DNA of 64,000 nt, taken from assembly GCA_039931165.1 (NCBI GenBank), contig JBDTSL010000001.1, forward strand, positions 2,214 through 66,213. Direction: 5' to 3'. Positions 3,658 through 63,155 of this stretch are shown here, piece after piece. Origin of the DNA: Candidatus Doudnabacteria bacterium. GTDB lineage: Bacteria; Patescibacteriota; Doudnabacteria; UBA920; O2-02-FULL-48-8. The notes under the pieces are model-generated. The model had not been told where the DNA came from. It saw only the letters and a list, made by a program, of their open reading frames with translations, and did no database searches. Every line of letters begins with the position of its first letter. The first letter of the stretch is position 1. A program made the position numbers and the translations under genes.

Positions 3658-3718
3658 AGCGTACAGCGTATAGCGTAAAGCGTATAGATCTAAACCCTAT
3701 ACGCTAAACCCTAAACGC
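3658..3718 (+). repeat. Family-2 GCGTATAG-hairpin element, copy 1 (abuts atpE stop)
   Basis: AGCGTACAGCGTATAGCGTAAAGCGTATAG-ATCTAAACC-CTATACGC-TAAACCCTAAACGC. About 90 percent identical to the reverse complement of 17460-17520. Confidence 0.7.
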
Positions 3719-6877: not shown

Positions 6878-6908
6878 GGTGTATATTATTAATGATCAGC
6901 TTTATTGC

Positions 6909-7859: not shown

Positions 7860-7958
7860 TCCGAGAAAATATCTTCAAGGACATTATATCAGAAAAGCCG
7901 GACAACCTGACCTAAGACAGGTTCATCCGGCAATTTGGACTTGCAGTGTCTAACTCTA

Positions 7959-9548: not shown

Positions 9549-9567
9549 GAATCCCAGTTTTATTTTA

Positions 9568-11169
9568 TTAAAACGCTCGTTTTTTTCGGGCCACGTAGAA
9601 CAGCAATAAGGCCGCGATCATTCCCGCCGGAAGGATGACATTCCACAAAGTATTTCTTCCCGCTGGCGCATATCCGGTAGCTGCCAAACCGATGCCTGGA
9701 GGCGGAGTTGGTGTTGCCGGCGGCGCTACCACCACAGTAGCGAACGCAAGATCAGTGGCAGTTATGCCATTGGCCGTGCCGGAGGCTGTGGCAGTGTTCA
9801 GGGTCGTGGCAGTGAGATTTGAGATACAGGTAAAGCTCCAGCTCTCGGTCGGTTCGAGCAGATTGTTTTGATTGATATCTCCCGGGTGTCCTACAACTCT
9901 ACCGGGTAAGCCTGTGCATTTGTTATCAGTAACAGTTACATCACTTAAAGCCACGGTACCCGGGTTGGTGACGGTATATCTGTAAGTAACCGCTCCGCCG
10001 CCTGCCGGCAGTGTGAAAGGATAAGGGATCTTTACCACATGGATCAAAGGAGGAACGACGGCAGCGCCGACGACAACTGTTGCGGTGGCTGTGTCGGTAG
10101 AGCTTAGTCCCAGAGAGAATCCTGTGGCTGTGACGGTATTTGTATGAGTGGCGGCTAGGGTCGTGGCGCAGTTGTATATCCAGACTTCAGTCAGATCCAG
10201 CGCGCCGTTGGCATTGGTATCGCCGGAGACAAAGTTTACCGGGCCACAGCTGTCATCGGTCACTCTGACAGTGGACATCGGGACAGTTCCGATGTTACGG
10301 ACAGAGTAAGTGTAGGTCACAGATCCGGGACCACCAGGCAAAGACAAAGGGCTGGGTACTTTTAGGACATCGATCAGCGGTGGGACCGGGACCGGGCCGC
10401 CGGGGCCGGCGGGCGGTGTGCCTGCACATGTCACCGGTGTGGCTATATTGGTCGTATTCCCCGTTGTAACTACTCCGCCAAATGACAAGGCCCTTCCTGT
10501 CCAGTTTACGTTAGCACCAGTTGTAATGCCCGAATCATCAATAACTGTTCCTAACATAGTCGTATTGTCTGCGAGTGATGTTGCAGAAGTGGCAGTCCAA
10601 AAAACGTCACACGGAGATGCCCCGGCCACTTGCACAATCGCCCCTGCCGACGAGGTTAGGGCGCCAAAAATCCTGAATATATATGTTCCAGCTCCATTAA
10701 GCGTAATTGTGCCTGTTATCTGCGCAGCACTACCGGCTGTAGTGCAATAAATTCCGGGCAGATAAACTCCAATACCACCAGGGTGAAGGGCTTCAGTGCC
10801 CAGATTAACCGCTCCGGCTGGGAAAGTGTAATCGCAAGGCAATTGAGCATTCAAATTAACAAGTGCGCTGCCCTGATCTGTGCCTGCGGTAGAATATGGA
10901 GCACCCGAGCCGTAGCGCAGCTGTGTGCCTAGCGGGTGAACTGCCGGTCCTGTAGTAAATCCGATATCGCCGTTAACCGTGGTTCCGGCGAAGGTATTAA
11001 TGAAAGAACTGGCAAGAATGGCATATGATGTGGCCGCTCCAAGGTTCGGAGTTGTAGCCGCACGAGCCATAAGGCCATTCATCATAGAAATCCCGGCCAT
11101 AAGCAGAATAACCAACAGAGATATAACAATCCGGCCTTTGTATTTTTTTGCGTTTCGTTTTTTTATCAT
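9568..11169 (-). CDS. Sortase-substrate surface protein B: ice-binding-like (DUF3494) N-domain + two DUF11 repeats + LAATG sorting signal
   Basis: After the signal peptide the protein reads LGAATSYAILASSFINTFAGTTVNGDIGFTTGPAV, matching the DUF3494 family opening. The C-terminus is GIGLAATGYAPAGRNTLWNVILPAGMIAALLLFYVARKKRAF. LAXTG is the class-E sortase motif. Confidence 0.7.
   Translation of the reverse strand: MIKKRNAKKYKGRIVISLLVILLMAGISMMNGLMARAATTPNLGAATSYAILASSFINTFAGTTVNGDIGFTTGPAVHPLGTQLRYGSGAPYSTAGTDQGSALVNLNAQLPCDYTFPAGAVNLGTEALHPGGIGVYLPGIYCTTAGSAAQITGTITLNGAGTYIFRIFGALTSSAGAIVQVAGASPCDVFWTATSATSLADNTTMLGTVIDDSGITTGANVNWTGRALSFGGVVTTGNTTNIATPVTCAGTPPAGPGGPVPVPPLIDVLKVPSPLSLPGGPGSVTYTYSVRNIGTVPMSTVRVTDDSCGPVNFVSGDTNANGALDLTEVWIYNCATTLAATHTNTVTATGFSLGLSSTDTATATVVVGAAVVPPLIHVVKIPYPFTLPAGGGAVTYRYTVTNPGTVALSDVTVTDNKCTGLPGRVVGHPGDINQNNLLEPTESWSFTCISNLTATTLNTATASGTANGITATDLAFATVVVAPPATPTPPPGIGLAATGYAPAGRNTLWNVILPAGMIAALLLFYVARKKRAF
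9725..10421. repeat. Second copy of the ~700-bp intragenic repeat
   Basis: See the feature at 8136-8832. Confidence 0.85.
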
Positions 11170-11347
11170 AATCTTCCTGACTTTCGTTAGGCGGGTTAAT
11201 TATTTAGTTTATTTGTATTTCGAACCATGCGGTCTGTGAATCTAGCTTTTTTAGTGTCTTTTTTATGAAAATAGCTTCTGTACATATTATGATATGCTTT
11301 ATGGTAAATGTCAAAACTAACGCTGTGGATAACAGCTTATACCAAAA

Positions 11348-11374
11348 CCACCTGCTGATGCAGGTGGTTTTTTA
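11348..11374. terminator. Intrinsic terminator-like hairpin (ccacctgc-tgat-gcaggtgg) followed by T6
   Basis: Perfect 8-bp stem with a T-run on the plus strand and an A/T-rich run on the other side. Lies between adhesin genes B and C. Confidence 0.5.
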
Positions 11375-11383
11375 TGATTCGGT

Positions 11384-11490
11384 TTTTGCGAGCGACCGCT
11401 TTTGAAGCTTGAGATCTGGCGGGAGCGAATCAATCTCATCTTTAATTGAGATTGCTTCGTCGTCCCGATAAATCGGGACTTCTCGCAAAA
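11384..11490 (+). repeat. Family-1 structured intergenic element, copy a
   Basis: Outer inverted repeat TTTTGCGAG/CTCGCAAAA. Inside it, CGAATCAATCTCA pairs with TGAGATTGCTTCG, then a hairpin TCCCGAT-AAA-TCGGGA, then CTTCTCGCAAAA. Confidence 0.6.
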
Positions 11491-11502
11491 TTGAGAGAAA
11501 AT

Positions 11503-12645
11503 TTAAAGCGCTTTTTTTCTTCGGGCAATGTAGAGCAGGAACAAAACCGCGACTATGCCAATTGGCAGGATCACATTCCAGGGAGTCGCTTTTTGCGCCG
11601 GATTAAATCCTGTAGCTGCCAGCCCGAGGCCGGGTGGCGGAGTAACTGCTACTGGCACAGGAGTGACCACATTTGCCGTATTTACGATGGTGCAGCCGGT
11701 CGTAAGGCCTGCTACAACCGTGATCGAGCCGCAAGTGGATGAATTTTGAGTCCAGCCGGACGGCACTACTTCCGTGGCTGAATAAACTCCTGGGGTAAGA
11801 CCGCTTTGGGTATGTGATCCGGTTCCTGCCGAGGTTGAAATGCTGAAACTAGAGAAGCCGGCGCCGGTGGTGTTAAAGTTGAATGTGCCATTGCCTCCGA
11901 CCGCTGTTTTATTTACGGTAATTGATCCTGTGGCCGGAAGTCCAGAAGCGCATACCGGTGTGGTAATCGTATTGAGAGAGGTGGTGACGGTTCCGCCAAA
12001 TGCCAGGACTCTCCCTGTCCAAGTAGCGAGGTTGCCGAGTGTAATGCCCGAAGCATCGATGTCCCGGCCTACGAAGGCAGAGTTTGCTCCAAGCGTTGTG
12101 GCAGCGCCCGGGGTCCACCAGACATCACAAGAGGTCGCGCCATTGGAGGCCGTGACCACGGAATTGGCCACAGTGGTAAGCGCTCCGGTCATCCGGAAAA
12201 TGTATACGCCGGCGCCATTCAGAGTAATTCCGCCGGTTCCTACGTCAGCCGCGCCCAGAACGCAATATACTCCCGGTGTGTAAACGCCGACCGGACCGTG
12301 TGTGGTATCGGCAGCGAGGTCAATTGCCCCGGGTGCGAATGTAAACGTACACGGCTGGCTGTTCAGGGCAGACAAAGCCGCTCCCTGATCTATGCCGGCC
12401 TGGGCATAAGTAGCATCAGCCGTATGGGTGACGCCAGTGACTGTGGGCGCTACAGCAGGCCCGGTGGTATATCCCAGATCGCCGTTAATGACGGTCCCGA
12501 CCAAAGTGTTGGTATAGGAACCGGAAAGAACGGTAAAGCTGTTGGCCGTCCCAAGGCCCGGTGACGTTGCCGCGTTGGCTGTGACCCCAACCATAAGAAC
12601 AGCGGCCAATAAAATGATAGTGAACAGGATATTAATCTTTTTCAT
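11503..12645 (-). CDS. Sortase-substrate surface protein C: ice-binding-like (DUF3494) domain + Thr/Gly-rich Ig-like segment + LAATG sorting signal
   Basis: Reads LGTANSFTVLSGSYTNTLVGTVINGDLGYTTGPAV after the signal peptide. C-terminus is PGLGLAATGFNPAQKATPWNVILPIGIVAVLFLLYIARRKKAL. Confidence 0.7.
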   Translation of the reverse strand: MKKINILFTIILLAAVLMVGVTANAATSPGLGTANSFTVLSGSYTNTLVGTVINGDLGYTTGPAVAPTVTGVTHTADATYAQAGIDQGAALSALNSQPCTFTFAPGAIDLAADTTHGPVGVYTPGVYCVLGAADVGTGGITLNGAGVYIFRMTGALTTVANSVVTASNGATSCDVWWTPGAATTLGANSAFVGRDIDASGITLGNLATWTGRVLAFGGTVTTSLNTITTPVCASGLPATGSITVNKTAVGGNGTFNFNTTGAGFSSFSISTSAGTGSHTQSGLTPGVYSATEVVPSGWTQNSSTCGSITVVAGLTTGCTIVNTANVVTPVPVAVTPPPGLGLAATGFNPAQKATPWNVILPIGIVAVLFLLYIARRKKAL

Positions 12646-17459: not shown

Positions 17460-17520
17460 GCGTTTAGCGGTTAGGGTTTAGCGTCTAGAGGTTTAGATCT
17501 ATACGCTCTACGCTATACCC
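17460..17520 (-). repeat. Family-2 element, copy 2 (abuts lepA stop)
   Basis: Minus strand GGGTATAGCGTAGAGCGTATAGATCTAAACCTCTAGACGCTAAACCCTAACCGCTAAACGC. Confidence 0.7.
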
Positions 17521-19292
17521 TACTTCTTAAGAATTGCCAGAAATGCTTCTTGCGGGATATCGACAGACCCGATCCTTTTCAGCCTCTTTTTACCTTTTTT
17601 CTGCTTTTCCAAATGTTTCATTTTGCGCGTGACGTCCCCTCCATACAATCCCTTGGTCACGTCTTTGCGCACCGCGGAAATCGTTTCGCGGGCGATGACT
17701 TTTCCGCCGATCACGGCCTGTATCGCGATCTCAAATTGCTGGCGGTGGATCAAGGACTTGAGTTTTCCCGCCAAAGACCGGCCTTCTTCTTCAGCCAGCT
17801 CCCTGTGGACTATCATTGACAGAGCATCGACTTTCTCCGAGGCCACCAGAATATCCAACTTCACCAGATCCCCGACCCGATAATCCAGCAATTCATAATT
17901 AAGCGAGGCGTAGCCTGACGAAACACTCTTAAGTTTATCATAAAAATCGATGATGATGTTGGCCAGCGGCATTTCGGCAGTGATCAAAACCCGTTCGTTG
18001 CTCAGGTACTCCATATTTTTGTATATTCCCCTCCGCCCGGTGATCAGTTCCAGGATCCCGCCGATGTATTTTTGCGGGACCAAAATTTCCACATCCACCC
18101 AAGGTTCTTCCAAACTTTCGAACAAAGACGGGTCCGGAAGCTCAGCCGGAGTGTGAATTATTTTCTTTTCCCCATTCCTAAGATTGATCTTATATTCAAC
18201 CGAAGGCGCGGTCAGCACCAGATCCAAGCCATACTCGCGCGTAAGCCGCTCCTGGACAATATCCATATGAAGGAGGCCCAAAAACCCGGTCCTGAAACCG
18301 AAGCCCAACGCCGGAATACTTTCCGGTTCAAATTCCAAAGCCGCATCATTTAACTTCAATTTATCAATGGCATCGCGAAGCAAAGGATAATCGTCACCGG
18401 ATGTGGGAAAAATACTGGCGTAAACCATCGGCTTCACTTGTTTATATCCCGGCAGCTGCTGGACCTTCGAATCCACAGTAGTCACCGTATCCCCGACTCT
18501 TGCTTTGCGCACATCCCGCAGGCCGGTGACTATGTAACCGACCTCTCCGGTCAGCAATTCTTTGGATGGAAAATATTTGGGATGGAAATACCCGACCTCC
18601 AAAGCATCAGCTCCGGTTTTGGTACCCATGATCACTATTTTTTGGTTTTTGGTCAGCTCGCCGTCCACCACCCGCACAAACGTCACAACTCCGCGATGAA
18701 TGTCGTAGGTGGAATCAAAGATCAGCGCCCTCAAAGGTTTATCTGAATCTCCCGTTGGCGCAGGCACTCTTGTGACCACTTCTTCCAGGATCTTTTCCAC
18801 TCCTTCGCCGGTTTTTCCGGACGCGTACAAAATCTCTTCGTCGGTAAAGCCAAACGCTTTTTTTATCTCTTCCGCGGTTTTTACCCGATCAGAGTTCGGC
18901 AGATCAATTTTGTTCACCACCGGAATTATTTTCAAATTATGGGCCTGGGCCAAATGAATATTGGCCAAAGTCTGCGCCTCGATCCCTTGCGTCGAGTCCA
19001 CGACCAAAATCGCGCCTTCACACGCTGCCAATGACCTGCTAACCTCATAAGTAAAATCCACATGCCCTGGAGTGTCAATTAAATTCAAAATATACCCTTT
19101 CCATTCCATGCGGACGGGCTGTAATTTGATCGTAATTCCACGCTCGCGTTCCAGATCCATGGTATCCAAAAGCTGATCCTTCATCTCGCGCTTGGATACT
19201 GTTGACGTCATTTCCAAAAGCCGGTCGGCCAAAGTGGACTTGCCGTGGTCAATGTGGGCGATGATGCAAAAATTACGAATTTTGTCTTGCAT
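17520..19292 (-). CDS. lepA: Elongation factor 4 (LepA)
   Basis: 590 aa with the G1 motif IAHIDHGKSTL, DTPGHVDF and NKIDL. The LepA-specific C-terminal domain is present. Confidence 0.95.
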   Translation of the reverse strand: MQDKIRNFCIIAHIDHGKSTLADRLLEMTSTVSKREMKDQLLDTMDLERERGITIKLQPVRMEWKGYILNLIDTPGHVDFTYEVSRSLAACEGAILVVDSTQGIEAQTLANIHLAQAHNLKIIPVVNKIDLPNSDRVKTAEEIKKAFGFTDEEILYASGKTGEGVEKILEEVVTRVPAPTGDSDKPLRALIFDSTYDIHRGVVTFVRVVDGELTKNQKIVIMGTKTGADALEVGYFHPKYFPSKELLTGEVGYIVTGLRDVRKARVGDTVTTVDSKVQQLPGYKQVKPMVYASIFPTSGDDYPLLRDAIDKLKLNDAALEFEPESIPALGFGFRTGFLGLLHMDIVQERLTREYGLDLVLTAPSVEYKINLRNGEKKIIHTPAELPDPSLFESLEEPWVDVEILVPQKYIGGILELITGRRGIYKNMEYLSNERVLITAEMPLANIIIDFYDKLKSVSSGYASLNYELLDYRVGDLVKLDILVASEKVDALSMIVHRELAEEEGRSLAGKLKSLIHRQQFEIAIQAVIGGKVIARETISAVRKDVTKGLYGGDVTRKMKHLEKQKKGKKRLKRIGSVDIPQEAFLAILKK

Positions 19293-33022: not shown

Positions 33023-34594
33023 TCAGTTACTATTTTCTATCTCGCCGCCGAGGATTTTCAGTGCCGATTCTACGGTTTCATTTGGAGTATCAACTGCCGT
33101 ACTACCGGGCCAGTCTTTGGCCATAACCGGCTTGACCATCAGTTTAATGCCTGCGACTTCCTCAATCACCTGATCGACAATGATCCTGTTCTTGCGCGCT
33201 TCGATCGCGTCTTTGTGGAATTTATACGGAAAAGTCAGGATCAATTCTTTGCCGATCACTGCCTCGGGCTTGGATAATTTCAAACTGGAGATCAAAGAAT
33301 GATTGTAATCCTTGATTTTTTCCAGAATTTCCGGCCATTTTTCTATGATAGCTGCCAACTCCTCATTACCATCGCGAGCCTGCGAAGCAGGCGCGGCGAT
33401 CTTTTCTTTTGCTAAGATTGCTTCGTTGGCCGCAAAATCAGACCCTTTGGAAATCGGCCTCCTCGCAATGGTACTATTTTGTTCTGCATCAATCCGCGTT
33501 AAGTCTACATCTGTGAGTGTTGTTGTTGCCTCCACCGCGGCCAATTCCAAAGGCAAGCTTTGGACCACAGCCCATTTGATCTCGCTTTCGGCTTTTTGAA
33601 AGATCTGAATGATTTTCGTCAGCCTAGCCAGCGGCAGGCTGTCGGTCTGCTTTCTCAAATTTTCCTGCACGTCCTTGGTGAAGCCAAAGTCAGAAACGGC
33701 GCCGACTTTGAGCAATAAAATTTTGCGCAAATATTCCAGAAAGTCCTTTTCAAACTGGTACAGATCGCGTCCTCCGTACATCAGCTTGGAAATAAAGCCA
33801 ACCGCTTCCTGGGTTTGATTGCCGATGAGCAGATCTAAAAAATTACCCGTGGTTTTAATTCCGGTCAGTCCCAGGATCTGTTCCACCATCTCTTCAGTGA
33901 CCTGCTCTTCGGAGTAATTGATGACCTGGTCCAGAAGCGACAAACCGTCGCGGAAACTGCCGTCCGCCGCCGCGGCGATTTCCATCACAGCCCCGTCCGT
34001 AATGCTGACTTTATTGTCTTCGGCCACAAACTTCAAAAGTTTGGTCAGATCGGCGATGCTGACTTTTTTAAAATCAAACCGCTGAGTGCGGGATATGATC
34101 GTGGCCGGGACTTTATTTATCTCCGTCGTGGCAAGTATAAACACAGCGTGCTTCGGCGGCTCTTCCAAAGTTTTCAGAAGCGCGTTGAACGCGCCTTTCG
34201 AAAGCATATGGACCTCGTCGACGATGATGACCTTGTAGGTCGCCTTAGTCGGAGCAAACTGCAAATGCTCGATCAGTTCGCGGATATTGTCGACTCCGGT
34301 GTGGGATGCCGCGTCGATCTCCAGCAGATCCAGGCTGGTGGCCTCGAAAAACTGCCGGCAGACGTCGCATTCGTTGCATGGTTCCGATCCTTGTCTGTTG
34401 GTGCAATTGATCGCGCGCGCAAAAATCCGCGCCAGCGTGGTTTTGCCCACTCCTCTGGGGCCCGTGAACAAATACGCGTGGCCGACGCGATTATTGGCCA
34501 CGGCATTGGCTAAAGTGGTTTTGATATGTTCCTGATTGACCACGGAAGCGAAATTCAGCGGCCGGTATTTTCTGTATAGAACTAGATTGGACAT
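33023..34594 (-). CDS. dnaX: DNA polymerase III subunit gamma/tau
   Basis: Walker A GPRGVGKTT, a zinc-module cysteine cluster CTNRQGSEPCNECDVC, and the motif IIVDEVHML. Confidence 0.9.
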   Translation of the reverse strand: MSNLVLYRKYRPLNFASVVNQEHIKTTLANAVANNRVGHAYLFTGPRGVGKTTLARIFARAINCTNRQGSEPCNECDVCRQFFEATSLDLLEIDAASHTGVDNIRELIEHLQFAPTKATYKVIIVDEVHMLSKGAFNALLKTLEEPPKHAVFILATTEINKVPATIISRTQRFDFKKVSIADLTKLLKFVAEDNKVSITDGAVMEIAAAADGSFRDGLSLLDQVINYSEEQVTEEMVEQILGLTGIKTTGNFLDLLIGNQTQEAVGFISKLMYGGRDLYQFEKDFLEYLRKILLLKVGAVSDFGFTKDVQENLRKQTDSLPLARLTKIIQIFQKAESEIKWAVVQSLPLELAAVEATTTLTDVDLTRIDAEQNSTIARRPISKGSDFAANEAILAKEKIAAPASQARDGNEELAAIIEKWPEILEKIKDYNHSLISSLKLSKPEAVIGKELILTFPYKFHKDAIEARKNRIIVDQVIEEVAGIKLMVKPVMAKDWPGSTAVDTPNETVESALKILGGEIENSN

Positions 34595-35111: not shown

Positions 35112-35714
35112 TTATAATTCTTCCAGTTCTGTTTCGTCCGATGCTTGCGCGCGGGCGATAGGCGCTTGCTCCAAGCCTATCTGGTCTTTTTTGATGACAT
35201 TTTCCACGGCTCCCCAGTCGGCGTCTTTGTCTTTCGGAAGCACGATAGTGACCTGATCTCCCGGTTCGGCTTTGAAATAGGTCAAGCTCGCCAACAAAAC
35301 CTTGTGAGGCTTCCCTTCAGCGACAACTTTGTACTCGCCTTTTTCATCCGAGACCAGGATACCCAAAATCTTGCGCCGCTCGATCGGGCCGATCTGTTTA
35401 TAGATAAATGAACCGTCGTCGGCTATCGTCAGTTTCAAAACGTCGCCTTCGACCAGTTTGCTTTTTGACGCATAATTGGCAGGCACCGGATATTGCTTCC
35501 CGTCAGGCCCCATCATATTCTGGCCGTCGAACATTCCTTCGATGACCTTGCCGCCCTCGGACATATTCAAAACTTGGGCTCTTTTTATGAGCTCAGAAGA
35601 CGAGTCGGATTTTCCGCCCATCATTTCACGCAACAAAGCCTTGGCTGACTGGATATTTTTTTCAGCCGACTCGATCATTTGCGCGATTAAAGCGATGTTA
35701 GAAAGATTGTCCAT
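35112..35714 (-). CDS. Hypothetical protein
   Basis: 200 aa soluble protein with an acidic C-terminal tail. No recognisable motif. Confidence 0.4.
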   Translation of the reverse strand: MDNLSNIALIAQMIESAEKNIQSAKALLREMMGGKSDSSSELIKRAQVLNMSEGGKVIEGMFDGQNMMGPDGKQYPVPANYASKSKLVEGDVLKLTIADDGSFIYKQIGPIERRKILGILVSDEKGEYKVVAEGKPHKVLLASLTYFKAEPGDQVTIVLPKDKDADWGAVENVIKKDQIGLEQAPIARAQASDETELEEL

Positions 35715-35884: not shown

Positions 35885-36008
35885 CTGCGAGCGGCCGATT
35901 TCATTTAGCATTATGTTTAGCGGCCGCGTGGCAGTCTATACTAATGATTAGATTGCTTCGTCGCCCCGCCCTTGAAGAATCCGTAATTTAGCGGGTCTCC
36001 TCGCAAAT
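35885..36008 (+). repeat. Family-1 structured intergenic element, copy b
   Basis: TCTGCGAG...AGATTGCTTCGTCG-CCCCGCC...GCGGG-TCTCCTCGCAAA. It shares the AGATTGCTTCGTCG and CTCCTCGCAAA blocks. An internal GCGGCCG/CGGCCGC hairpin is present. Confidence 0.55.
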
Positions 36009-36226
36009 TCGATAGATTCAGCTTTATTCACTAAACTCGTGAAGCTGTTTCTAATCAATCAAACTTTTTACCCAAGCGACAAAGGTCTGCAGGCCAAGCG
36101 TGAAGCTGTCGTCCGGCGGGTTTTCCAAGATCTCCGCCCCCTTATAAAATTCTTCGTCTTTCAATTCGACCGCGTTTTCAGCCGGGGCTTCGCGGTTTTT
36201 TTCGGTTTCCAATTTTTCCGGTGAGT

Positions 36227-36655
36227 TCATAGTTTATTTTTCTCCAAAAATTGGCTGAATTGCGGAAACTCCTGGCGCAAAACGTCCTTGTTAATTTGGG
36301 CCTTGACCGCTTCCTGCAAAATCCGGAGGGCTGTATGAGTATCAACCGGCAAAATATCCTCAACAAATTCAAGGACTTCGCCTTCCAGTAATTTTCGTTC
36401 CGAGATATGGATGCTCATCTGGATCCGCTCCGTCAAGGGGAACAATTCGTCAAAATCTTTCGTCAGATCCATGATCAATTTCAAAAAAACCTGCTCATTG
36501 TCGATAAGATTGATGTTATCCACGACTTTCTGGGCAATTTCAGCCGCGCGCTGCAAACTGATATTCCTGACCCGCAGCTGCTCAGCCAGAAAATAACAGA
36601 CGGATTTGGCGTATTGGTCATTTGGCTTGCTCTTGTTCACGTTAGTTTCCTGCAT
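36227..36655 (-). CDS. Hypothetical protein
   Basis: 142 aa helical acidic protein. Its start overlaps the upstream pilin gene stop by 14 nt. Confidence 0.4.
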   Translation of the reverse strand: MQETNVNKSKPNDQYAKSVCYFLAEQLRVRNISLQRAAEIAQKVVDNINLIDNEQVFLKLIMDLTKDFDELFPLTERIQMSIHISERKLLEGEVLEFVEDILPVDTHTALRILQEAVKAQINKDVLRQEFPQFSQFLEKNKL

Positions 36656-37139
36656 AAAAATTTAAGCCAGTGTTATTCCAGGCGGCAAAAGTGGCCACTG
36701 CTGATGGGTTGGATTGATTCTCCAGTCTGGTTGCCAAAATGTAGTCCGTTGCCAGGTCGGTGAAGAGATAATCACAACATCCGTTTCTCTTAAAGCCGCG
36801 GGCATAGTAATAACCGTATTGGGCGTCGATGTTGATCGGGTCAATTGGAATCGAAGTCAAATACGCTGGGACTAACCCAAGTGTCTTGATGTCACCATAA
36901 AAAGGACTGGTCGAAGTGCATGCTGTAGTACTGGCGCCAGTACAAGTCGGATAAAAGCCATTATCGTTAATATACAGCGCTAGTGCGGCCTGCAATTGGT
37001 GCATGTCTGTCAGCCGCTTGGCGTCCCGAGATTTGGAGCGTGCGGTTCCCAACGCAACTATGACCACAGAGGCCAAAAGCCCGATGATGGCGATGACGAC
37101 GAGCAATTCAATTAAGGTAAAGCCTTTATTTTTAATCAT
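36642..37139 (-). CDS. Type IV pilin-like protein
   Basis: N-terminus MIKNKGFTLIELLVVIAIIGLLASVVIVAL is a prepilin motif. Has C-terminal Cys pairs. Confidence 0.8.
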   Translation of the reverse strand: MIKNKGFTLIELLVVIAIIGLLASVVIVALGTARSKSRDAKRLTDMHQLQAALALYINDNGFYPTCTGASTTACTSTSPFYGDIKTLGLVPAYLTSIPIDPINIDAQYGYYYARGFKRNGCCDYLFTDLATDYILATRLENQSNPSAVATFAAWNNTGLNFYAGN

Positions 37140-37183
37140 AATATTTTATTTAGCACCTCTAATTATTCGAATCTCTAAGTAAT

Positions 37184-39718
37184 CTAGCCAGATTTTTCCA
37201 CAATTGCCGGGCCGGCAGTCATCGGCGAGCCGAGCTTGGTGCGGTTTAGAATTTCTGTCTGGACTTCCAAACGGGATTTGCCGTGTTTCAGGCTCGAGAG
37301 ATTGCGGATGACTTTGCCCATTTCCGGATCGGCGCCTGGAGGTTTGGGATAAGTTTCCATATTGAAAGGGCGCGAACCGGTTCCTCTGATCATCAGTTTC
37401 ACATAGGCGTTATAACGGTCGATGTTGATGACGTCAAATTCATTGAATACCGGCGCGAATTCTTTGGCTATGATCTCCGCGTCTTCCACGCCGATCCTGA
37501 AGGCCACGATAGTGCCGGTATTGCCGAAAACCGCGTCTTTCATCCTTGTGTCGATGGCCGACGAGCCTTCTTTTTCCTGAGCCAGCTGAGAAATAAACTG
37601 ATGGGCCATGATCAGGTTCAGGCGATATTTACGGGCTTCGGATAAAATAGTGGCAAAACTGTCTGTAACGAAATTTTGGAACTCATCCACATATAAATAA
37701 AAATCGCGCCGCTTGTCTTCCGGAATATCGGCGCGGGAGAGCGCGGCCATTTGAAGCTTGGATACGATGATCAAGCCCAAAAGCTTGGCGTTGATCTCGC
37801 CGGTCTTGCCTTTCGACAGATTGATCAGGAGGATCTTGCCCTGGTCCATGACCTCGCGGAAATCGAAAGCGCTTTCCGGCTGGCCGATGATGTTGCGCAT
37901 CATTTCGTTTTCCACGAACCGTCCGACTTTAGAAACCAGATAGCCCAGCATTTCGGATTTATGGAAATCGGACGTTTTAGCCATCTCCTTTTCCCAGAAA
38001 CTGCGGACTATGGGATCTTTGACTTTTGAAACTTTATATTTCTGAAAATCCGTGTCCGTAAACATCCGCGGAATGTCGGCGAGAGTTCCCGGCGACTGCT
38101 TGTCTTCCATCAAGGTCAGCATGACGTTGCGCATATTGTGCTCAAACATCGGGCCGATCATCTCCGGCGGGAACAGCTTCATGAAAATCGCGATCATCTC
38201 CTGGACGGCAAAATCTTTTTGCTCCGGGCTTTTCACTTCCAGCATATTCAGGCCCAACGGCCGCTCCATGTCGAAAGGCTCGAACAGGATGACGTCATCG
38301 GCTCGCTCTTTGGGAATGTACTGCAGAACGTCTTCCACAAAATCGCCGTGCGGGTCCACTATACAGAGTCCTTCGCCGGACCTGATGTCCTGGATGGCCA
38401 TATTTTTTAGCAGTTCGGTTTTGCCGGTGCCGGTGCGACCGATTATATACTCATGCCGCCTGCGGTCGTCCCGCTCCAGATAAATTTTGGTTTCAATGCC
38501 GCGGTATGTATTTTTGCCGAGCAGGACTCCTGAGGTCGGGGTGTTTACCGGCGCCGGGGCTTTTTTCGCGGTCACCCATTTGATGTTCGGCGTTTCCATA
38601 TACCTGGTGGGCAGGTGCCAGATGCTTGCCAATTCTTCGGTATTTAAGATCTCCCGAGTATTTCTAAAAACCCGGAAAATGTAATCGGTCATGACCTGAG
38701 CCTGCTTTTTGCTCATAACCCTAAAACCATTGAACGGCGGCATGGTGTATTGCATGAATGACGCCAGAATATTGCGAAGACTCGCATCTGCCGATCTTTG
38801 GTCGGTTGATGAGCAAATGACCCGAAGATTAAATTTAAATCCGGTTTTGGACGCTTTTTCCTCGAATTTTTTGATCATCTCCTGCTGCATGGGAGTCAAC
38901 TGCAGCGGTTTTTTCATGCCGGAATTGTCCATATATCCCTGCTGTTGATGAGCCTGATTTTTTGGGGAAAATAATTGATTCAAAGCGCTCCCTATCAGGC
39001 CAAGTGTCCCATTGAGAGCCTTGCTGGCGGTTGAAGAGGTCACCACATCCGGGTTGCGACCCTGCTGGATCTGCAAGGCGTAATGCCTTGGCTTCGATTG
39101 CCAGTGATGTGTCGCCGGGCTGATCAAAAGCTGGATGGCGGCTCCCTCGTCCGTGGCCAGTTTCGACAGGCTGTTGGTCAGGGAATTAAGCGGGTCGGTC
39201 TCCATAACCTTGTAAGTGCGCAAGGGAAACGAATAGCTTTTTTGCAGCTGCAGCTCCGCTGCCGCAACCGCTGATTTCGGCGAAAAAATATTATACGCCT
39301 TTACCAGGTCTATCTGGGCATTCGGATACTGGGCATGAAGTTGTTTTTCCACCAAATTCTGGGAACGTTTCGGGACATTGATATAAAAAGATATCTTTTT
39401 TTTGTGGGCCGCGATCTCAAAGCTCATGTATTCGTTAATGCCCAAAAAATGTTTCAGGTCAGTGCCTTCGGTGGTACCGATGGTGGCAAAAAACTGTTCG
39501 GCAATGCCGATGATATCTTTTTCCTCTTTCTGCGGTTCCTGTTCCGGATTGGAATTTTCCTTGGAGATCGTGACTTCCAGGAAAACCGAATCCATGATCC
39601 TGGGCGCCCAGGTTTTTTTGCGCAATAGATCAATTGCCAAAAAATACAAAATCAGGCCTACCAGGCCCAGGATAGCTATTAGTATGAGTGAGAAAATAAT
39701 TAGCGAGCTGTTGATCAT
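37184..39718 (-). CDS. Membrane-anchored VirD4/TraG/TraD-like P-loop ATPase (type IV coupling-protein family) with a ~400-aa N-terminal extracytoplasmic domain
   Basis: N-terminal TM. Walker A IIGRTGTGKTELL followed by IVDPHGDF, Walker B FYLYVDEFQNF, and the C-terminal motif LIMAHQFISQL (TraG-D_C-like HQxxxQL). Confidence 0.55.
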   Translation of the reverse strand: MINSSLIIFSLILIAILGLVGLILYFLAIDLLRKKTWAPRIMDSVFLEVTISKENSNPEQEPQKEEKDIIGIAEQFFATIGTTEGTDLKHFLGINEYMSFEIAAHKKKISFYINVPKRSQNLVEKQLHAQYPNAQIDLVKAYNIFSPKSAVAAAELQLQKSYSFPLRTYKVMETDPLNSLTNSLSKLATDEGAAIQLLISPATHHWQSKPRHYALQIQQGRNPDVVTSSTASKALNGTLGLIGSALNQLFSPKNQAHQQQGYMDNSGMKKPLQLTPMQQEMIKKFEEKASKTGFKFNLRVICSSTDQRSADASLRNILASFMQYTMPPFNGFRVMSKKQAQVMTDYIFRVFRNTREILNTEELASIWHLPTRYMETPNIKWVTAKKAPAPVNTPTSGVLLGKNTYRGIETKIYLERDDRRRHEYIIGRTGTGKTELLKNMAIQDIRSGEGLCIVDPHGDFVEDVLQYIPKERADDVILFEPFDMERPLGLNMLEVKSPEQKDFAVQEMIAIFMKLFPPEMIGPMFEHNMRNVMLTLMEDKQSPGTLADIPRMFTDTDFQKYKVSKVKDPIVRSFWEKEMAKTSDFHKSEMLGYLVSKVGRFVENEMMRNIIGQPESAFDFREVMDQGKILLINLSKGKTGEINAKLLGLIIVSKLQMAALSRADIPEDKRRDFYLYVDEFQNFVTDSFATILSEARKYRLNLIMAHQFISQLAQEKEGSSAIDTRMKDAVFGNTGTIVAFRIGVEDAEIIAKEFAPVFNEFDVINIDRYNAYVKLMIRGTGSRPFNMETYPKPPGADPEMGKVIRNLSSLKHGKSRLEVQTEILNRTKLGSPMTAGPAIVEKSG

Positions 39719-39752
39719 TTTTTGTTTTGGTATCTAAACTTTAATCTCGGAT

Positions 39753-40127
39753 TTATGCCGATAGCGATTCTGGATGTTCTTTTACCTGGCCCAAAAGTTG
39801 GATCGCTTCATCGGGAGGTATTTCTTTTTTTTGCGCGGCGGCAATAACTTCATTCATGATCTTGGTTGCTTCCGCCTGATCTTTGGCTGCCTCAAACCTG
39901 TCAACGAATATTTGAGTAGCATCCGAAAATATTGCCTCCGGCTCCTTCTCGGCTCCCGCGGGTTTTTGGTACTCTAAAATTTTCTTTGTCTTGTCGGCAA
40001 GCTCTTCGCGTTCAGCCGCAGTACTAAAACCCCGGGTATTGGCCTCGGTTTGATTGGTTTGGGCTGCCTCGTAGAATTCGTTTCCGGCTTCCACTTCAGC
40101 CCCTGGTTTTCTGAGTATTTCTGCCAT
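39753..40127 (-). CDS. Hypothetical small acidic protein
   Basis: 124 aa, Glu/Ala-rich. First gene of the pilin/ATPase operon. Confidence 0.35.
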   Translation of the reverse strand: MAEILRKPGAEVEAGNEFYEAAQTNQTEANTRGFSTAAEREELADKTKKILEYQKPAGAEKEPEAIFSDATQIFVDRFEAAKDQAEATKIMNEVIAAAQKKEIPPDEAIQLLGQVKEHPESLSA

Positions 40128-47110: not shown

Positions 47111-49402
47111 CTATTTCACGCTGTGTCCGCCGAACTGCTCGCGCATGGAAGAAACCAGTTTCCCGACAAAACTCTTAGTTTTTTTTGATCTCACCCGGAA
47201 CCGGAACGACTGTTCGATGATGGCGGCCGGAATTCCCAGCTCTTTGGCGGTTTTGGCGGTCCATTCGCCTTCACCTGTATAACCCACGACCCCGGATATC
47301 CCTTTCAGATTCTGGCCTCGGGCCAAAAATGCATCCTTCAGCCAGCCGACCAATCGAGATTCCACCACGCTGCCGTGATTGTATATATCAGCAACGTCGA
47401 TCAGGTTTAATTTAAACGGCGAGGCTTTCATGATGCCGAACCCTTCCGCGATAGACTGCATCATGCCGTACTCAATGCCGTTATGGACCATTTTCACGAA
47501 ATGGCCGGCGCCGGCTTTACCGAAATATTTGTAGCCATCAGGAATGGACATGGCATCGAACAACGGCCTGAGTTTTTCAAACAGATTCTCTTTGCCGCCG
47601 ATCATCAGACAGCCGCCGCGGAGCGCTCCTCCTGGGCCGCCGGAAAAACCCACGTCCATAAAATCAATGCCTTTTTTCGCGAGCAATCCGCCGCGCCGGA
47701 TGGAATCCTTATAAAACGAATTACCGCTGTCTATCACAATATCGCCCCGTTCCAAATAATCGGCTAACCCGTCCCGGCTAAACAGGACCGCATCGACTTC
47801 AGCGTGCGGCACCATCAGCCAAAAAAGTCTTGGGCGCGGCAGGGAAGCCGCGAGTTCCTTCCAGTTATTTACCGGCTTAAAATTTTTAAATCGCGATAAT
47901 TCCTCGATTGCTTGTTTGGAATGCTGATTAGTCGCGATAATTTGCCAATTTTTTTCCAAAAGCTGTATTGCCAGGTTCTTGCCCATTTTACCCAAACCGA
48001 TCATGGCAAATTTTTTATGGGCAAAATGGGGTTTGGGCAATTGATCAAACATCTGCAAAATCTTCGTATTTTTTTTATATACAGCCAGCGGCGTTGATTT
48101 TTTCTTCCAGTCGGCGATAATCGGATCAATAAATCGCCAGGAAGCGATCGCTTCACGCGAGGAGACAAACAATGTCTGGTCGCCTTCCATGGCATCCCTG
48201 ATTAGCTTGCGGTATTCGGCCACATAGCGAAGTTTGGACTCGGATTCATAGTCAAACCGCAGCTGGCGCTTTTCTAAAACCATGTCCTGCCCTTGCTTAT
48301 TCCAAAATTCTATTTCAATTCCCGGGTTTGGCTGTATCCGAAAAATAATCCGGTTTTTGAATTCCACGCCCTTCAATGTCACAACGATTTCTTTTTTCGT
48401 TTCATGCAGGTTTTTCCCAGCTTCCAGGTAAATCGGCACGTTTTGCCACCTGGGACTGTTAATGTGAGCCAATAGCTTAAAGTATGTCTCAGTATTTGAT
48501 GTCCGGGACACTCCTGGCTCTTTCTTGTAACCCTGGTATTGTCCGCGCAAGGTCTGATTTTTGATTTCGTTTTCACCAAGCAGACGCAAATGGCCGATGA
48601 CCTCGGCGCGCTTGCTGCGAATGATATGCGGATCCGGCGAATTGGGATTATCCATAGTGATCAGAGCCATCATTTGCAGCAAATGATTCTGGCCCATATC
48701 CACCAAAGCGCCGGTGGCGTCATAAAACTCGCCGCGGCTCTCGACATCGATTTCCTCCAGGGTGCGGATCTCGATCTTTTCGATGAAATTATGGTTCCAG
48801 ACGTTCTCTAGCAAATTGTTGGCAAACCTGAACGCCATAATGTCCTGCAGGATATCCTTGGCTAAATAATGGTCTATCCTGTAAATTTGATCGTCGGTGA
48901 AAAGTTTGCCCAAGAGCAAATCGAGTTCTTCGGCGTGGCGAAGATCCTTGCCGAACGGTTTTTCCACGATTATCCTGGCCCACAGGCCGGATTTGGCGCG
49001 GGTCAAACCCGACTTTGCCAGTTCCCGCAGCAATCCGTCATAAAAAATCGGAGGCGTAGCCAGATAAAATAATTTATTCCCGGCGCCTTTAAGCTTGCCG
49101 ACAAGCGACTGAAACGCGTCTTTCTGATCGAACATTCCCTGATGATAAGAAAACAATCTCAAAAAAGGGCCAATATTACCCTGGATCTTTACTTTTTTAC
49201 GCAAAGATTTTTTTAAAAGTTGGCGAAACTGTTCGTCGGAAAAAGGCCGGCGGGCAAAACCAATCACCCGAAATTTCGCGGGCAACTGTTTTTCAAGATA
49301 CAAATGGTAAAGCGCGGGCAGTAATTTGCGCTCAACCAGATCACCTGTGGCGCCGAAGATCACCAAAACCGTCGGTTCTTTAATGCTCTTGCGTATTGCC
49401 AT
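47111..49402 (-). CDS. zwf-gnd: Fused glucose-6-phosphate 1-dehydrogenase (N-terminal ~470 aa) and 6-phosphogluconate dehydrogenase, decarboxylating, short form (C-terminal ~290 aa)
   Basis: The Zwf part has NADP site GATGDLVERKLLPAL, signature RIDHYLAKD and EKPFG. The Gnd part has Rossmann MIGLGKMGKNLA, VIDSGNS, DVGFSGG and GAGHFVKMVHNGIEYGMMQ. It is one uninterrupted ORF. Confidence 0.85.
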   Translation of the reverse strand: MAIRKSIKEPTVLVIFGATGDLVERKLLPALYHLYLEKQLPAKFRVIGFARRPFSDEQFRQLLKKSLRKKVKIQGNIGPFLRLFSYHQGMFDQKDAFQSLVGKLKGAGNKLFYLATPPIFYDGLLRELAKSGLTRAKSGLWARIIVEKPFGKDLRHAEELDLLLGKLFTDDQIYRIDHYLAKDILQDIMAFRFANNLLENVWNHNFIEKIEIRTLEEIDVESRGEFYDATGALVDMGQNHLLQMMALITMDNPNSPDPHIIRSKRAEVIGHLRLLGENEIKNQTLRGQYQGYKKEPGVSRTSNTETYFKLLAHINSPRWQNVPIYLEAGKNLHETKKEIVVTLKGVEFKNRIIFRIQPNPGIEIEFWNKQGQDMVLEKRQLRFDYESESKLRYVAEYRKLIRDAMEGDQTLFVSSREAIASWRFIDPIIADWKKKSTPLAVYKKNTKILQMFDQLPKPHFAHKKFAMIGLGKMGKNLAIQLLEKNWQIIATNQHSKQAIEELSRFKNFKPVNNWKELAASLPRPRLFWLMVPHAEVDAVLFSRDGLADYLERGDIVIDSGNSFYKDSIRRGGLLAKKGIDFMDVGFSGGPGGALRGGCLMIGGKENLFEKLRPLFDAMSIPDGYKYFGKAGAGHFVKMVHNGIEYGMMQSIAEGFGIMKASPFKLNLIDVADIYNHGSVVESRLVGWLKDAFLARGQNLKGISGVVGYTGEGEWTAKTAKELGIPAAIIEQSFRFRVRSKKTKSFVGKLVSSMREQFGGHSVK

Positions 49403-51539: not shown

Positions 51540-51646
51540 TTTGCGAGGCTTCCAAAAGCATGAACCAAGGCCGAAGCAATCTCTTTCCCAAAGATTAGAT
51601 TGCTTCGTCGCCCTGTACCGAGCGCCGGTACAGGGCTCCTCGCAAA
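51540..51646 (+). repeat. Family-1 structured intergenic element, copy c
   Basis: Outer pair TTTGCGAGG/CCTCGCAAA. Inside it, CGAAGCAATCT pairs with AGATTGCTTCG, then a hairpin CCTGTACCG-AGCG-CCGGTACAGG, then GCTCCTCGCAAA. Confidence 0.6.
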
Positions 51647-51666
51647 GGCGACTTATTAAAAATTAT

Positions 51667-61774: not shown

Positions 61775-61850
61775 TCGCTCGCGAATTCGCATTTGCGAGG
61801 AGCCGCTTTTTTACCTAAAAGGTCAGCTTCGGCGGCAACGAAGCAATCTA
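61775..61850 (-). repeat. Family-1 element, copy d (inverted orientation, most divergent)
   Basis: Minus strand reads AGATTGCTTCGTTG-CCGCCGAAG...GCGG-CTCCTCGCAAA-TGCGAATTCGCGAG. It abuts the serS stop codon. Confidence 0.5.
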
Positions 61851-63155
61851 TTATTTTTTGATCACATCAAACCCCGTGTATTTCTGCAGCACTTCCGGAA
61901 CTTCCACCGACCCATCGGCTTGCTGGTAATTTTCCAGGATCGCGATCAAAACTCTGGGCATGGCCAGTGCAGTCGCGTCATTCGTATGCACCAGAACATT
62001 TTCTCCTTTTTCGGATTTTAGCTTGATGTTCAGCCGCCGGGACTGAAAATCAGTCATCATGTCGGCGGTATGAGTCTCCCGGTAGGTTTTTTGGCTTGGG
62101 ATCCAGACCTCCATATCAACCCCTCGGGCATTTGGCATGCCGATATCAGCCGTACACTTCAGCAATTTTCTGTACGGCAGATCCAGGGCCTGCAAAATAT
62201 GCTCTTCGATGGCGATCAGGAACAAGTGCTCTTTAAAAGAATCCGAAGCGGCGGTAAAAGATTCCATTTCCAGCTTGTCGAACTGGTGCACCCTTAGGAT
62301 TCCTTTCACATCCTTGCCATATGAGCCTGATTCCCGCCTGAAAGAGGTAGAATAGCCGATATATCGCAAAGGCAGATCTGAGGCCTTTAAAACCTCATCC
62401 ATATGCTTGGAAACCAAAGTATGCTCCGCGCTGCCGATCAAATACAGATCGTCCTTTTGCAGATAATATCTTTCATCTTTATCTTCCTCGCTCAGACGCG
62501 AAGTTTTTACGTATACTTCCGGTTTGATCATGAAAGGCGGGATGACCGGGATAAACGGCTTGGCGGGATATCCTTTTTCCACGGAATTTGCGAGTTTCTT
62601 AAGTTCGGTTTCGTTCAACAACAGGGTGAAGACATAGTTGATCAGGGCAAATTGCAACTGGACCAAGCCTCCGGTCAAATAACCAAATCTGCTCCCTGCG
62701 ACTTTGGCCGCGGACTCCGTGTCGATAAGGTTCAGGTCGTGCCCAAGCTGCATATGATCTTTGGGTTCAAAAGCAAATTTCCTAGGGGCACCCCAAGTAA
62801 AAACCGTTTGATTCTCTCTCTCGTCCTGGCCCACCGGCACGTCTTTCCACGGAATATTCGGGACTTTCAACATTTCGGCCATCCATTGCCTGTCAATCTC
62901 GATAAACTCCAGTTCAAACTTCCCTAGCTCGTCCTTTAAAGCTCTGCTCTGCTCGATCAGCTCGTCTGTTCTGGCTTGTTTCAGCAGCATATTGAGCTCA
63001 TTTCTTTTCGCGCGTAGGTCTTCGATCCTGACCAGCAATTTTCTCCTTTGCTCGTCCAAAGAAAGCAAGTGGTCGATATTAGCCGAAGCTTTTTTGTGTT
63101 CAACCGCTTGTTTTACCTTTTTCGCGTTATCGCGGATAAATTTAATATCGAGCAT
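61851..63155 (-). CDS. serS: Seryl-tRNA synthetase
   Basis: 434 aa with an N-terminal coiled-coil arm and class II motifs (FRRE, GLDMEVWIPSQ). Confidence 0.9.
   Translation of the reverse strand: MLDIKFIRDNAKKVKQAVEHKKASANIDHLLSLDEQRRKLLVRIEDLRAKRNELNMLLKQARTDELIEQSRALKDELGKFELEFIEIDRQWMAEMLKVPNIPWKDVPVGQDERENQTVFTWGAPRKFAFEPKDHMQLGHDLNLIDTESAAKVAGSRFGYLTGGLVQLQFALINYVFTLLLNETELKKLANSVEKGYPAKPFIPVIPPFMIKPEVYVKTSRLSEEDKDERYYLQKDDLYLIGSAEHTLVSKHMDEVLKASDLPLRYIGYSTSFRRESGSYGKDVKGILRVHQFDKLEMESFTAASDSFKEHLFLIAIEEHILQALDLPYRKLLKCTADIGMPNARGVDMEVWIPSQKTYRETHTADMMTDFQSRRLNIKLKSEKGENVLVHTNDATALAMPRVLIAILENYQQADGSVEVPEVLQKYTGFDVIKK

Follow-up and report, generated by a model that had tools for sequence, protein, structure and literature searches.

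A large part of bacterial diversity belongs to the Patescibacteria, which live in attachment to other microbes. The present report concerns a membrane-anchored P-loop ATPase of 844 amino acids (aa), together with the small cassette of genes surrounding it, on a chromosomal stretch of 64,000 nucleotides (contig JBDTSL010000001.1, positions 2,214 to 66,213; hereafter the window) of a metagenome-assembled genome (MAG) from Candidatus Doudnabacteria, a lineage of the Patescibacteria, or Candidate Phyla Radiation (CPR). The best reading of this ATPase is that it represents a chromosomal, domesticated member, here termed A-type, of the coupling-protein lineage of type IV secretion systems (T4SSs), in which a membrane anchor is followed by a cytoplasmic DUF8128 domain and a motor resembling those of TrwB and VirD4.

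Among the closest described systems are the orphan type IV coupling proteins (T4CPs) of the same phylum. A recent survey of 3,035 Patescibacteria genomes identified 5,713 VirD4-like homologs, which are spread over 2,918 of these genomes and lie near virB4 in only 148 cases; VirB4 itself, which Patescibacteria carry as a separate and phylogenetically distinct protein, was found in 2,417 genomes, relaxases were rare, and the authors state that exaptation of the T4CPs "cannot be ruled out" (Quinonero-Coronel et al., 2025; PMC12102498). In Candidatus Southlakia epibionticum, an essential T4SS gene cluster lacks recognisable coupling or relaxase proteins (Wang et al., 2023; PMC10633639). Within the same data set, SEML1_0142, a protein with the layout of the window ATPase (P-loop region at aa 381-800), is essential at all three time points, and SEML1_0141, a 139-aa open reading frame (ORF) preceding it, is scored as growth-deficient at first and as essential at both later time points (PMC10633639). 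The window ATPase shares with the orphan T4CPs, SEML1_0142 and a second S. epibionticum protein (SEML1_0293) the phylum, the annotation, an N-terminal region of ~400 aa ahead of a T4CP motor and a location away from virB4, the likeness to the two SEML1 proteins being one of layout only. Since orphan Patescibacterial T4CPs have been published, the gene is named in NCBI and a Pfam DUF covers its N-domain, the advance made here is incremental. Specifically, we found no description, in the orphan T4CP papers or elsewhere, of the VirB4-like character of the DUF8128 N-domain, of the existence of two paralogs, A and B, or of a conserved 200-aa partner protein, nor of a connection with the ATPases that adjoin relaxase or nickase genes on a Bacillus plasmid and in phage SPO1; the searched literature makes no mention of DUF8128, PF26449 or DUF5663.

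Assignment of the ATPase to the VirD4/TraG family of coupling proteins, as proposed in an earlier annotation made from the sequence alone (the first-pass annotation), has held up, and neither FtsK nor HerA profiles outscore those of T4CPs. Among Pfam models the best is TrwB_AAD_bind (E 2.2e-13; 50 bits against a cut-off of 20.5), with further matches to T4SS-DNA_transf (1e-7) and TraG-D_C (1.4e-4); DUF87/HerA (3.2e-5; 24.6 bits) barely exceeds its cut-off and is weaker than TrwB_AAD_bind, HerA_C falls below cut-off, and the FtsK models give no match. Similarly, when a family profile of 67 sequences was searched against all PDB sequences, only TrwB (3.6e-7) and DotL (9e-6) fell below 0.01, HerA reached 0.03, and no FtsK or VirB4 chain was found among the matches even at E<=10. 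The motifs named in the first-pass annotation are present exactly, namely GRTGTGKT (aa 427-434), IVDPHGD (453-459), YLYVDEFQNF (674-683) and HQFISQL (706-712), and in an AlphaFold2 model of the whole protein (pLDDT 79) the stretch from Walker A to Walker B includes a block made up of helices only (aa ~499-611).

A single hydrophobic segment, at aa 4-30, is detected in the ATPase, and no second one precedes the Walker motifs. This segment gives a single-pass anchor with an N-out/C-in orientation and, because it is the only one and lies ahead of the N-domain, that domain must be located on the same side of the membrane as the motor, in the cytoplasm. The first-pass annotation had described the N-terminal region as an extracytoplasmic domain unique to this protein, and neither part of that description is borne out. 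The region corresponds to PF26449 (DUF8128), which is annotated on a database protein 100% identical to the window ATPase and on all 120 listed homologs, and a phmmer search of the full library with aa 40-400 recovers 2,110 clusters (50% identity) at E<=1e-3, 969 of them at E<=1e-10. In these clusters the domain is N-terminal in complete proteins of 800-1,400 aa, the C-halves of which again match T4CP profiles; DUF8128 stands directly N-terminal to the T4CP-like motor (PF10412), and distant members keep this layout.

Structure prediction of the N-domain, which the first-pass annotation had recommended, yielded an AlphaFold2 model (pLDDT 82, pTM 0.79) whose fold is like that of the VirB4 N-terminal domain. 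The top 14 PDB matches returned by Foldseek for this domain alone are all TrwK/VirB4 (E 4e-6 to 4e-3, TMq 0.41-0.43), and the matches that follow them are noise. For the model of the whole ATPase the best PDB match is likewise TrwK/VirB4 of R388 (E 1.5e-15, ~940 alignment columns), followed by TrwB, which aligns with the C-domain only (TMt 0.61). The window ATPase thus resembles VirB4 in having an N-terminal domain and a C-terminal ATPase, and differs from it in lacking sequence similarity past Walker A, in giving no Pfam match to the VirB4 profiles CagE_TrbE_VirB and AAA_10, and in not being linked to VirB3, VirB6 or VirB8. Its layout of anchor, N-terminal domain and ATPase is VirB4-like, and its motor is T4CP-like by sequence. 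The candidate identity of the ATPase with the VirB4 counted by Quinonero-Coronel et al. was rejected, both for want of a VirB4 profile match and because its neighbors are dnaX, gtrA, corA and secY rather than the comF, recG and radA of the virB4 loci of ABY1.

Compared with the T4CPs VirD4, TrwB, TraG, TraD and DotL, the window ATPase has the same P-loop motor with Walker A and B motifs, an all-alpha insertion and a tether to the membrane; T4CPs provide its best sequence and profile matches, and it is on TrwB that its C-domain superposes. The differences are that it possesses one transmembrane (TM) helix instead of two, that ~360 aa with a VirB4-like fold are interposed between anchor and motor, that relaxase and T4SS genes are absent from its surroundings, and that NCBIfam T4CP models are reached far below cut-off (TIGR03743, 56.6 bits against 366; the CD1115 family, 39 against 250). 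Unlike plasmid T4CPs, moreover, it is chromosomal and far more conserved.

Relatives of the ATPase are found on mobile elements. Using tblastn, homologs of 20-30% identity were detected over aa ~96-795, most of the N-domain included, in 379 plasmid records (Streptomyces, 96; Bacillus, 58; Staphylococcus, 32; Clostridium, 31; also haloarchaea and Sulfolobus) and in 60 phage records, nearly all of them Bacillus phages such as G, SPO1 and CP-51; phrog_5156 matches the ATPase over its full length (5e-95). On a 24.7-kb plasmid of B. subtilis (NZ_CP032854), an 886-aa full-length homolog (23% identity over aa 96-795, E 2e-46), annotated as a "DUF87 domain-containing protein," is the first gene of a conjugation operon and is followed by genes for a Replic_Relax relaxase, TcpE, an AAA_10 VirB4 and other conjugal-transfer proteins. 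In SPO1, the homolog gp27.4 is followed by gp27.3, a Replic_Relax nickase. The relaxase and VirB4 neighbors on the plasmid indicate that this ATPase lineage holds the coupling-protein position in a monoderm mobile element. These DUF8128 proteins, from plasmids of monoderms and from large Bacillus phages, share the two-domain layout of the window protein, and its modeled N-domain matches the fold of Gp156 of phage G in BFVD (E 1e-21, TMq 0.61). Genomic position sets them apart: the plasmid and phage genes precede a Replic_Relax relaxase or nickase, the plasmid one heading a TcpE/VirB4 operon, whereas the window gene precedes a variable slot and then an unrelated 200-aa protein. A relationship between the 200-aa family and the Replic_Relax relaxase of the Bacillus plasmid was considered and rejected (hhalign probability 1.7%).

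In Patescibacteria the ATPase displays near-housekeeping conservation in a chromosomal context. More than 1,700 homologs of 59-84% identity were found, those listed all carrying PF26449 together with PF10412, at least 555 species genomes carry a relative, and the mean column identity of the family is 71%. The conserved unit, as seen in 80 related loci taken from species-representative genomes, consists of a small acidic ORF, the ATPase, a variable slot and the 200-aa protein. An ORF of 110-145 aa lies upstream of the ATPase in 71 of 78 loci and is acidic in those examined. The homologs of the window's 124-aa protein at this position are 39% identical in two loci (L002, L006), a further one (L030) was joined by hidden Markov model (HMM), and iterative phmmer/hmmsearch from the 124-aa protein, aimed at uniting the upstream ORFs of the 71 loci, gathered 3 sequences only. 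The upstream ORFs are linked in so few cases because their sequences diverge too fast for BLAST and iterative HMMs. Downstream, in 52 of 63 informative loci the 200-aa protein is encoded within 2.2 kb of the ATPase in the same orientation; in 12 its gene adjoins that of the ATPase directly, with gaps of 1-196 bp. This protein has at least 8,000 database homologs of 75-91% identity, all "hypothetical" and without a Pfam domain. The only hints of its fold are a possible beta segment resembling MazE/AbrB, which remains sub-threshold (MazE_antitoxin, E 0.089), and one source annotation that reads PrlF-like; a PDB profile search with the family returned nothing significant, the best match being Fur at E 0.9.

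Between ATPase and 200-aa gene, the variable slot holds a member of the 142-aa family in 35 of the 80 loci and of the 59-aa family in 12. The 59-aa ORF clusters with ORFs of 57-70 aa that have a C-terminal ...F.AWVKS motif and are located at the same position in those 12 loci. The candidate assignment of the 142-aa family to DUF5663 was rejected (hhalign probability 0.7%). In ten loci (L025, L050, L068, L072, L075, L080, L031, L036, L049 and L053), the slot contains proteins of 64-96 aa with His/Gly-rich ends (e.g., ...GGHGGGGGHGGHH) around a hydrophobic core.

A view of greater evolutionary depth comes from three distant Patescibacteria loci (L081-L083), reached via a distant family member with Berkelbacteria among its relatives. 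There, genes for a giant protein, a DUF5663 protein and a protein of 350-600 aa are followed by a TM-anchored DUF8128 ATPase of ~850 aa (paralog A), a 170-aa protein, a protein combining Sigma70_r4 and HARE-HTH domains, and a second DUF8128 ATPase (paralog B) of ~1,030-1,180 aa, which lacks the N-terminal anchor in the one sequence examined (P0335). Identity to the window ATPase is 45% for paralog A and 37% for paralog B. Because the 170-aa protein directly after paralog A is 47% identical to the 200-aa protein of the window, the pair formed by the A-type ATPase and the 200-aa protein survives deep divergence. Similarly, SEML1_0293 adjoins a Sigma70_r4 and HARE-HTH gene in S. epibionticum, the same synteny as that of paralog B, and this neighbor, SEML1_0294, is essential (PMC10633639). 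The published count of about two VirD4-like copies per genome would fit such an A/B paralogy. The larger cassette of the distant loci (L081 2126-11237, L082, L083), with a giant protein of 950-1,870 aa, is kept only in part by the window; DUF5663 and a ~1,000-aa protein precede the ATPase in several Doudnabacteria loci and not in the window, and genes of the larger cassette stand upstream of the ATPase in L007-L009, L012, L013, L016, L017 and L030.

The Patescibacterial T4SS is essential in the one genetically tractable species, without a recognised coupling protein, relaxase or substrate, and the present locus supplies candidates for substrate recruitment, namely a coupling-type ATPase that is highly conserved and almost universal, with an N-domain resembling that of VirB4, and its conserved 200-aa partner. 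That the ATPase serves as the domesticated coupling or energising ATPase of a relaxase-less Patescibacterial T4SS, with the 200-aa protein as adaptor, is a proposal for which we hold belief and doubt to be evenly matched. Under such a scheme, the ATPase would form a membrane-tethered hexamer like other T4CPs and would recruit substrate to, or energise, the relaxase-less, MPF_FATA-derived T4SS that is encoded elsewhere in most Patescibacteria; its VirB4-like N-domain could offer docking onto a VirB4/VirB3/VirB6 platform, and the 200-aa protein might bind substrate or nucleic acid as an adaptor. The pilin, 142-aa and 59-aa proteins occupy the variable slot between the two conserved genes.

Several observations weigh against this proposal. 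Firstly, genomic linkage to a T4SS is lacking: only the 148 of 5,713 T4CP homologs noted above lie near virB4, and no T4SS gene was found among the scanned ORFs of the window, these being ORFs of at least 110 aa. Secondly, in S. epibionticum SEML1_0293, which has the same layout (PF10412 at aa 402-719), is non-essential and the T4SS is essential (PMC10633639), and the window ATPase is only a putative ortholog of SEML1_0142. Thirdly, the similarity between the modeled N-domain and VirB4 lies at the level of the fold only (TMq 0.41-0.43), and alignment of the ATPase family with monoderm AAA_10 VirB4 by hhalign gives a probability of 3%, confined to the Walker A region. The two-TM N-terminus of canonical T4CPs, exemplified by the two N-terminal TM helices of pLS20 VirD4 (PMC8557374), is not present, the hydrophobic segment at aa 4-30 standing alone. 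Finally, the adaptor role suggested for the 200-aa protein derives from synteny and the sub-threshold AbrB/MazE-like match.

The main competing explanation, which we consider somewhat unlikely, is that the A-type ATPase and the 200-aa protein have been exapted into a membrane machine of their own, unrelated to the VirB4 apparatus, that may move or process DNA or nucleoprotein in uptake from the host, competence or DNA repair. Exaptation was raised by the authors of the published survey themselves, in which 2,918 genomes have T4CP homologs and 2,417 have VirB4, the two being hardly ever linked (PMC12102498), although two gene copies in incomplete MAGs could yield such a difference in genome counts. 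Housekeeping-level conservation also speaks for an independent machine, as does the finding that both paralogs adjoin putative nucleic-acid-binding proteins, i.e., the weakly AbrB/MazE-like 200-aa protein and the Sigma70_r4 and HARE-HTH protein. NCBIfam matches to the archaeal DNA-import ATPases CedB and CedD point in the same direction, but they are weak, at 25 and 22 bits where the cut-offs are 600 and 700, and the conserved cassette encodes no channel partner. With regard to competence, ComEC, ComF and DprA are dispensable for growth of S. epibionticum and SEML1_0142 is essential (PMC10633639), which makes a pure competence role unlikely if the window gene is orthologous to SEML1_0142. A wider proposal, unlikely in our estimation, takes the A-type ATPase, the acidic upstream protein and the 200-aa protein together, with SEML1_0142 and SEML1_0141 as putative orthologs, as an essential, phylum-wide machine that arose from a conjugative coupling protein and no longer moves plasmid DNA; it could act either as the missing substrate receptor and motor of the relaxase-less T4SS, docking through mimicry of VirB4, or as a separate system that imports or exports nucleic acid or protein of host origin and on which the epibiotic lifestyle would depend.

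The first-pass annotation had favored a different partnership, in which the coupling-type ATPase and the type IV pilin encoded next to it form a minimal pilus-associated device for DNA uptake, export or secretion. Several features make this pairing attractive. The pilin gene begins 44 bp past the ATPase stop and overlaps the following 142-aa gene by 14 bp, so that pilin and ATPase are probably co-transcribed, and for some systems, R64 and the Ced/Ups systems of Sulfolobus among them, cooperation between type IV pili and DNA transfer of the conjugation type has been described (cited in PMC12102498). The prepilin-peptidase site is also genuine (MIKNKG/FTLIE), the N-terminus consisting of a short basic leader, MIKNKG, cleaved before FTLIELLVVIAIIGLLA, with G-1, F+1 and E+5 and a hydrophobic helix, and both N_methyl (PF07963; 1.6e-8) and TIGR02532 (1.5e-8) score above cut-off. 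The 165-aa protein resembles type IV pilins and type II secretion system (T2SS) pseudopilins in these traits and in a GspG-like N-half; it differs from them in scoring below the GspG equivalog cut-off (55 against 89 bits), in having no assembly genes nearby and in a position beside the ATPase that is unique to this genome.

Comparison with related loci argues against the device. In 70 of the 80 loci there is enough downstream sequence to judge, and none of these has an ORF with a prepilin motif within 1.5 kb of the ATPase on the same strand; the only pilins seen lie 2-6 kb from it. In one relative with 84% ATPase identity (L018), the blastn alignments of the ATPase and the 142-aa gene are spaced 55 bp apart, as against 600 bp in the window, which indicates an insertion of ~545 bp containing the 498-bp pilin gene. 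A second 84% relative (L087, on a 964-kb contig) is colinear with the window and lacks the pilin: dnaB-cysS-corA are followed by genes for proteins of 118 aa, the ATPase, 138 aa, 65 aa (called at the position of the 59-aa ORF) and 200 aa, then GtrA and DnaX. The pilin is, moreover, a paralog (39% identity) of a second prepilin encoded 21 kb away, domains of PilB, PilC and PilD were not found among the scanned window ORFs, and an N-domain in the cytoplasm is out of reach of a pilus on the cell exterior. The pilin is a recent, lineage-specific insertion seen only in this genome, and for this reason a machine joining pilin and motor is unsupported. The device, now very improbable, is already largely refuted by synteny, and the pilin is most likely an ordinary type IV pilus subunit expressed from this position by chance. 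The juxtaposition thus reflects the history of one genome and not a conserved pilus-translocase device, correcting an inference that was attractive but wrong. Of the two prepilins in the window, it is the distant one that is closer to the pilins of related loci.

Highly unlikely, too, is a role as a substitute for FtsK/SpoIIIE, in which the ATPase, anchored in the membrane, would pump DNA to clear or segregate chromosomes during division. A membrane anchor with a predicted RecA-like hexameric motor fold, high conservation and proximity to dnaX, and in relatives to division and cell-wall genes, would suit such a pump, but the ATPase matches no FtsK profile or PDB sequence, and the cultivated Patescibacterium S. 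epibionticum has a canonical FtsK of its own that is essential, on which grounds this candidate role was rejected. Hardly credible, finally, is the notion that the ATPase is cargo or a remnant of a decayed plasmid, integrative and conjugative element, prophage or other mobile module, as the remote homologs on Bacillus, Streptomyces, haloarchaeal and Sulfolobus plasmids and large Bacillus phages and the match to phrog_5156 might suggest, for many species share the gene order of the locus, with housekeeping genes around it, the ATPase combines full-length identity of 59-84% with intact motifs, relaxase, integrase and other T4SS genes are missing from its vicinity, GC content is uniform (0.47-0.48), and no close relatives were found among IMG/VR viral contigs.

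The features of the locus and the remaining elements treated here are collected in Table 1. All five minus-strand genes listed in the first-pass annotation are found at the coordinates it gave, the 124-, 142- and 200-aa proteins indeed match no Pfam, NCBIfam or PHROG family, and its statement that the window contains no VirB4, VirB6 or relaxase stands for the scanned ORFs; related loci agree, since no relaxase or VirB4-type T4SS lies within 10 kb on either side of the ATPase in any of the 80.

Table 1. Features of the ATPase locus and related elements of the window.
Feature	Coordinates	Strand	Remarks
Acidic protein, 124 aa	39753-40127	-	pI 4.6
Membrane-anchored ATPase, 844 aa	37184-39718	-	DUF8128 N-domain and T4CP-like motor; "paralog A" type
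ATPase, sole hydrophobic segment, aa 4-30	39629-39709	-	Kyte-Doolittle scan; followed by LRKKTWAPR
ATPase, N-domain, aa 40-400 (~360 aa)	38519-39601	-	Pfam PF26449 (DUF8128); cytoplasmic by topology
ATPase, P-loop motor, aa 405-795	37334-38506	-	T4CP-like, all-alpha insertion; TrwB_AAD_bind at aa 412-714
ATPase, Walker A	38417-38440	-	Inside motor
ATPase, Walker B	37670-37699	-	Inside motor
Type IV prepilin, 165 aa	36642-37139	-	N_methyl, TIGR02532
Helical protein, 142 aa	36227-36655	-	No family; accessory gene of variable slot
Conserved small ORF, 59 aa	36051-36230	-	Absent from the list of the first-pass annotation
Intergenic repeat copy	35930-36015	-	TTTGCGAGGAG, variable hairpin, CGACGAAGCAATCTA; in 336-bp spacer upstream of 200-aa gene
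200-aa protein	35112-35714	-	No Pfam family; most conserved neighbor of ATPase
Second type IV prepilin, 166 aa	15388-15888	-	N_methyl 2.7e-9
Further repeat copy	51577-51660	-	
Further repeat copy	11430-11500	-	
Further repeat copy	61795-61870	+	
Degenerate repeat copy	33414-33431		

The 124-aa gene is separated from the ATPase by 34 bp, the stop of the 142-aa gene overlaps the 59-aa ORF by 4 bp, and 336 bp of non-coding sequence, where a break in transcription is probable, then precede the 200-aa gene. The gtrA gene begins 19 bp after the 200-aa gene and carries a terminator-like hairpin at its 3' side. Further neighbors scanned in the window belong to housekeeping, envelope or surface classes and include, with gtrA, the genes dnaX, corA, cysS, dnaB and recR, mur and fts genes, and those for a P-type ATPase, ATP synthase, sortases and surface proteins; in other Doudnabacteria loci the cassette directly follows rpsE-rplO-secY.

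The 336-bp spacer also holds the short repeat that the first-pass annotation had placed between the 142-aa and 200-aa genes. Each copy is built from a GC hairpin, its stem sequence differing from copy to copy, between the two conserved sequences given in Table 1, and often from a second hairpin thereafter. The 18-mer core occurs 5 times where 0.06 matches would be expected, the folding z-scores of two copies are -4.2 and -4.9, and a search of Rfam with the repeat gave no match. Genes that have a copy upstream are the one for the 200-aa protein, alr, a DUF192 gene and a gene for a surface protein; the element could be a structured RNA motif or a repetitive extragenic palindrome (REP)-like element.

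Elsewhere in the window, an unusual zwf-gnd fusion is encoded by one 763-aa ORF (47111-49402, minus strand), with glucose-6-phosphate dehydrogenase (G6PD_N and G6PD_C) at aa 14-447 and 6-phosphogluconate dehydrogenase (NAD_binding_2 and 6PGD) at aa 464-743. A 32-nt inverted repeat, 94% complementary, has arms 13.8 kb apart (3665-3696 and 17490-17521), one adjoining the gene for the ATP synthase b-subunit and the other located at the lepA stop. Lastly, a surface-protein array at 5201-12645 (minus strand) contains two proteins with sortase domains and three Ice_binding-like surface proteins that are paralogs of one another, two of these three carrying DUF7507 and weak DUF11 matches and the third SpaA_4 instead; within this array, 300 nt at 8122-8421 and 9716-10015 are 99% identical, which suggests recent gene conversion or duplication.

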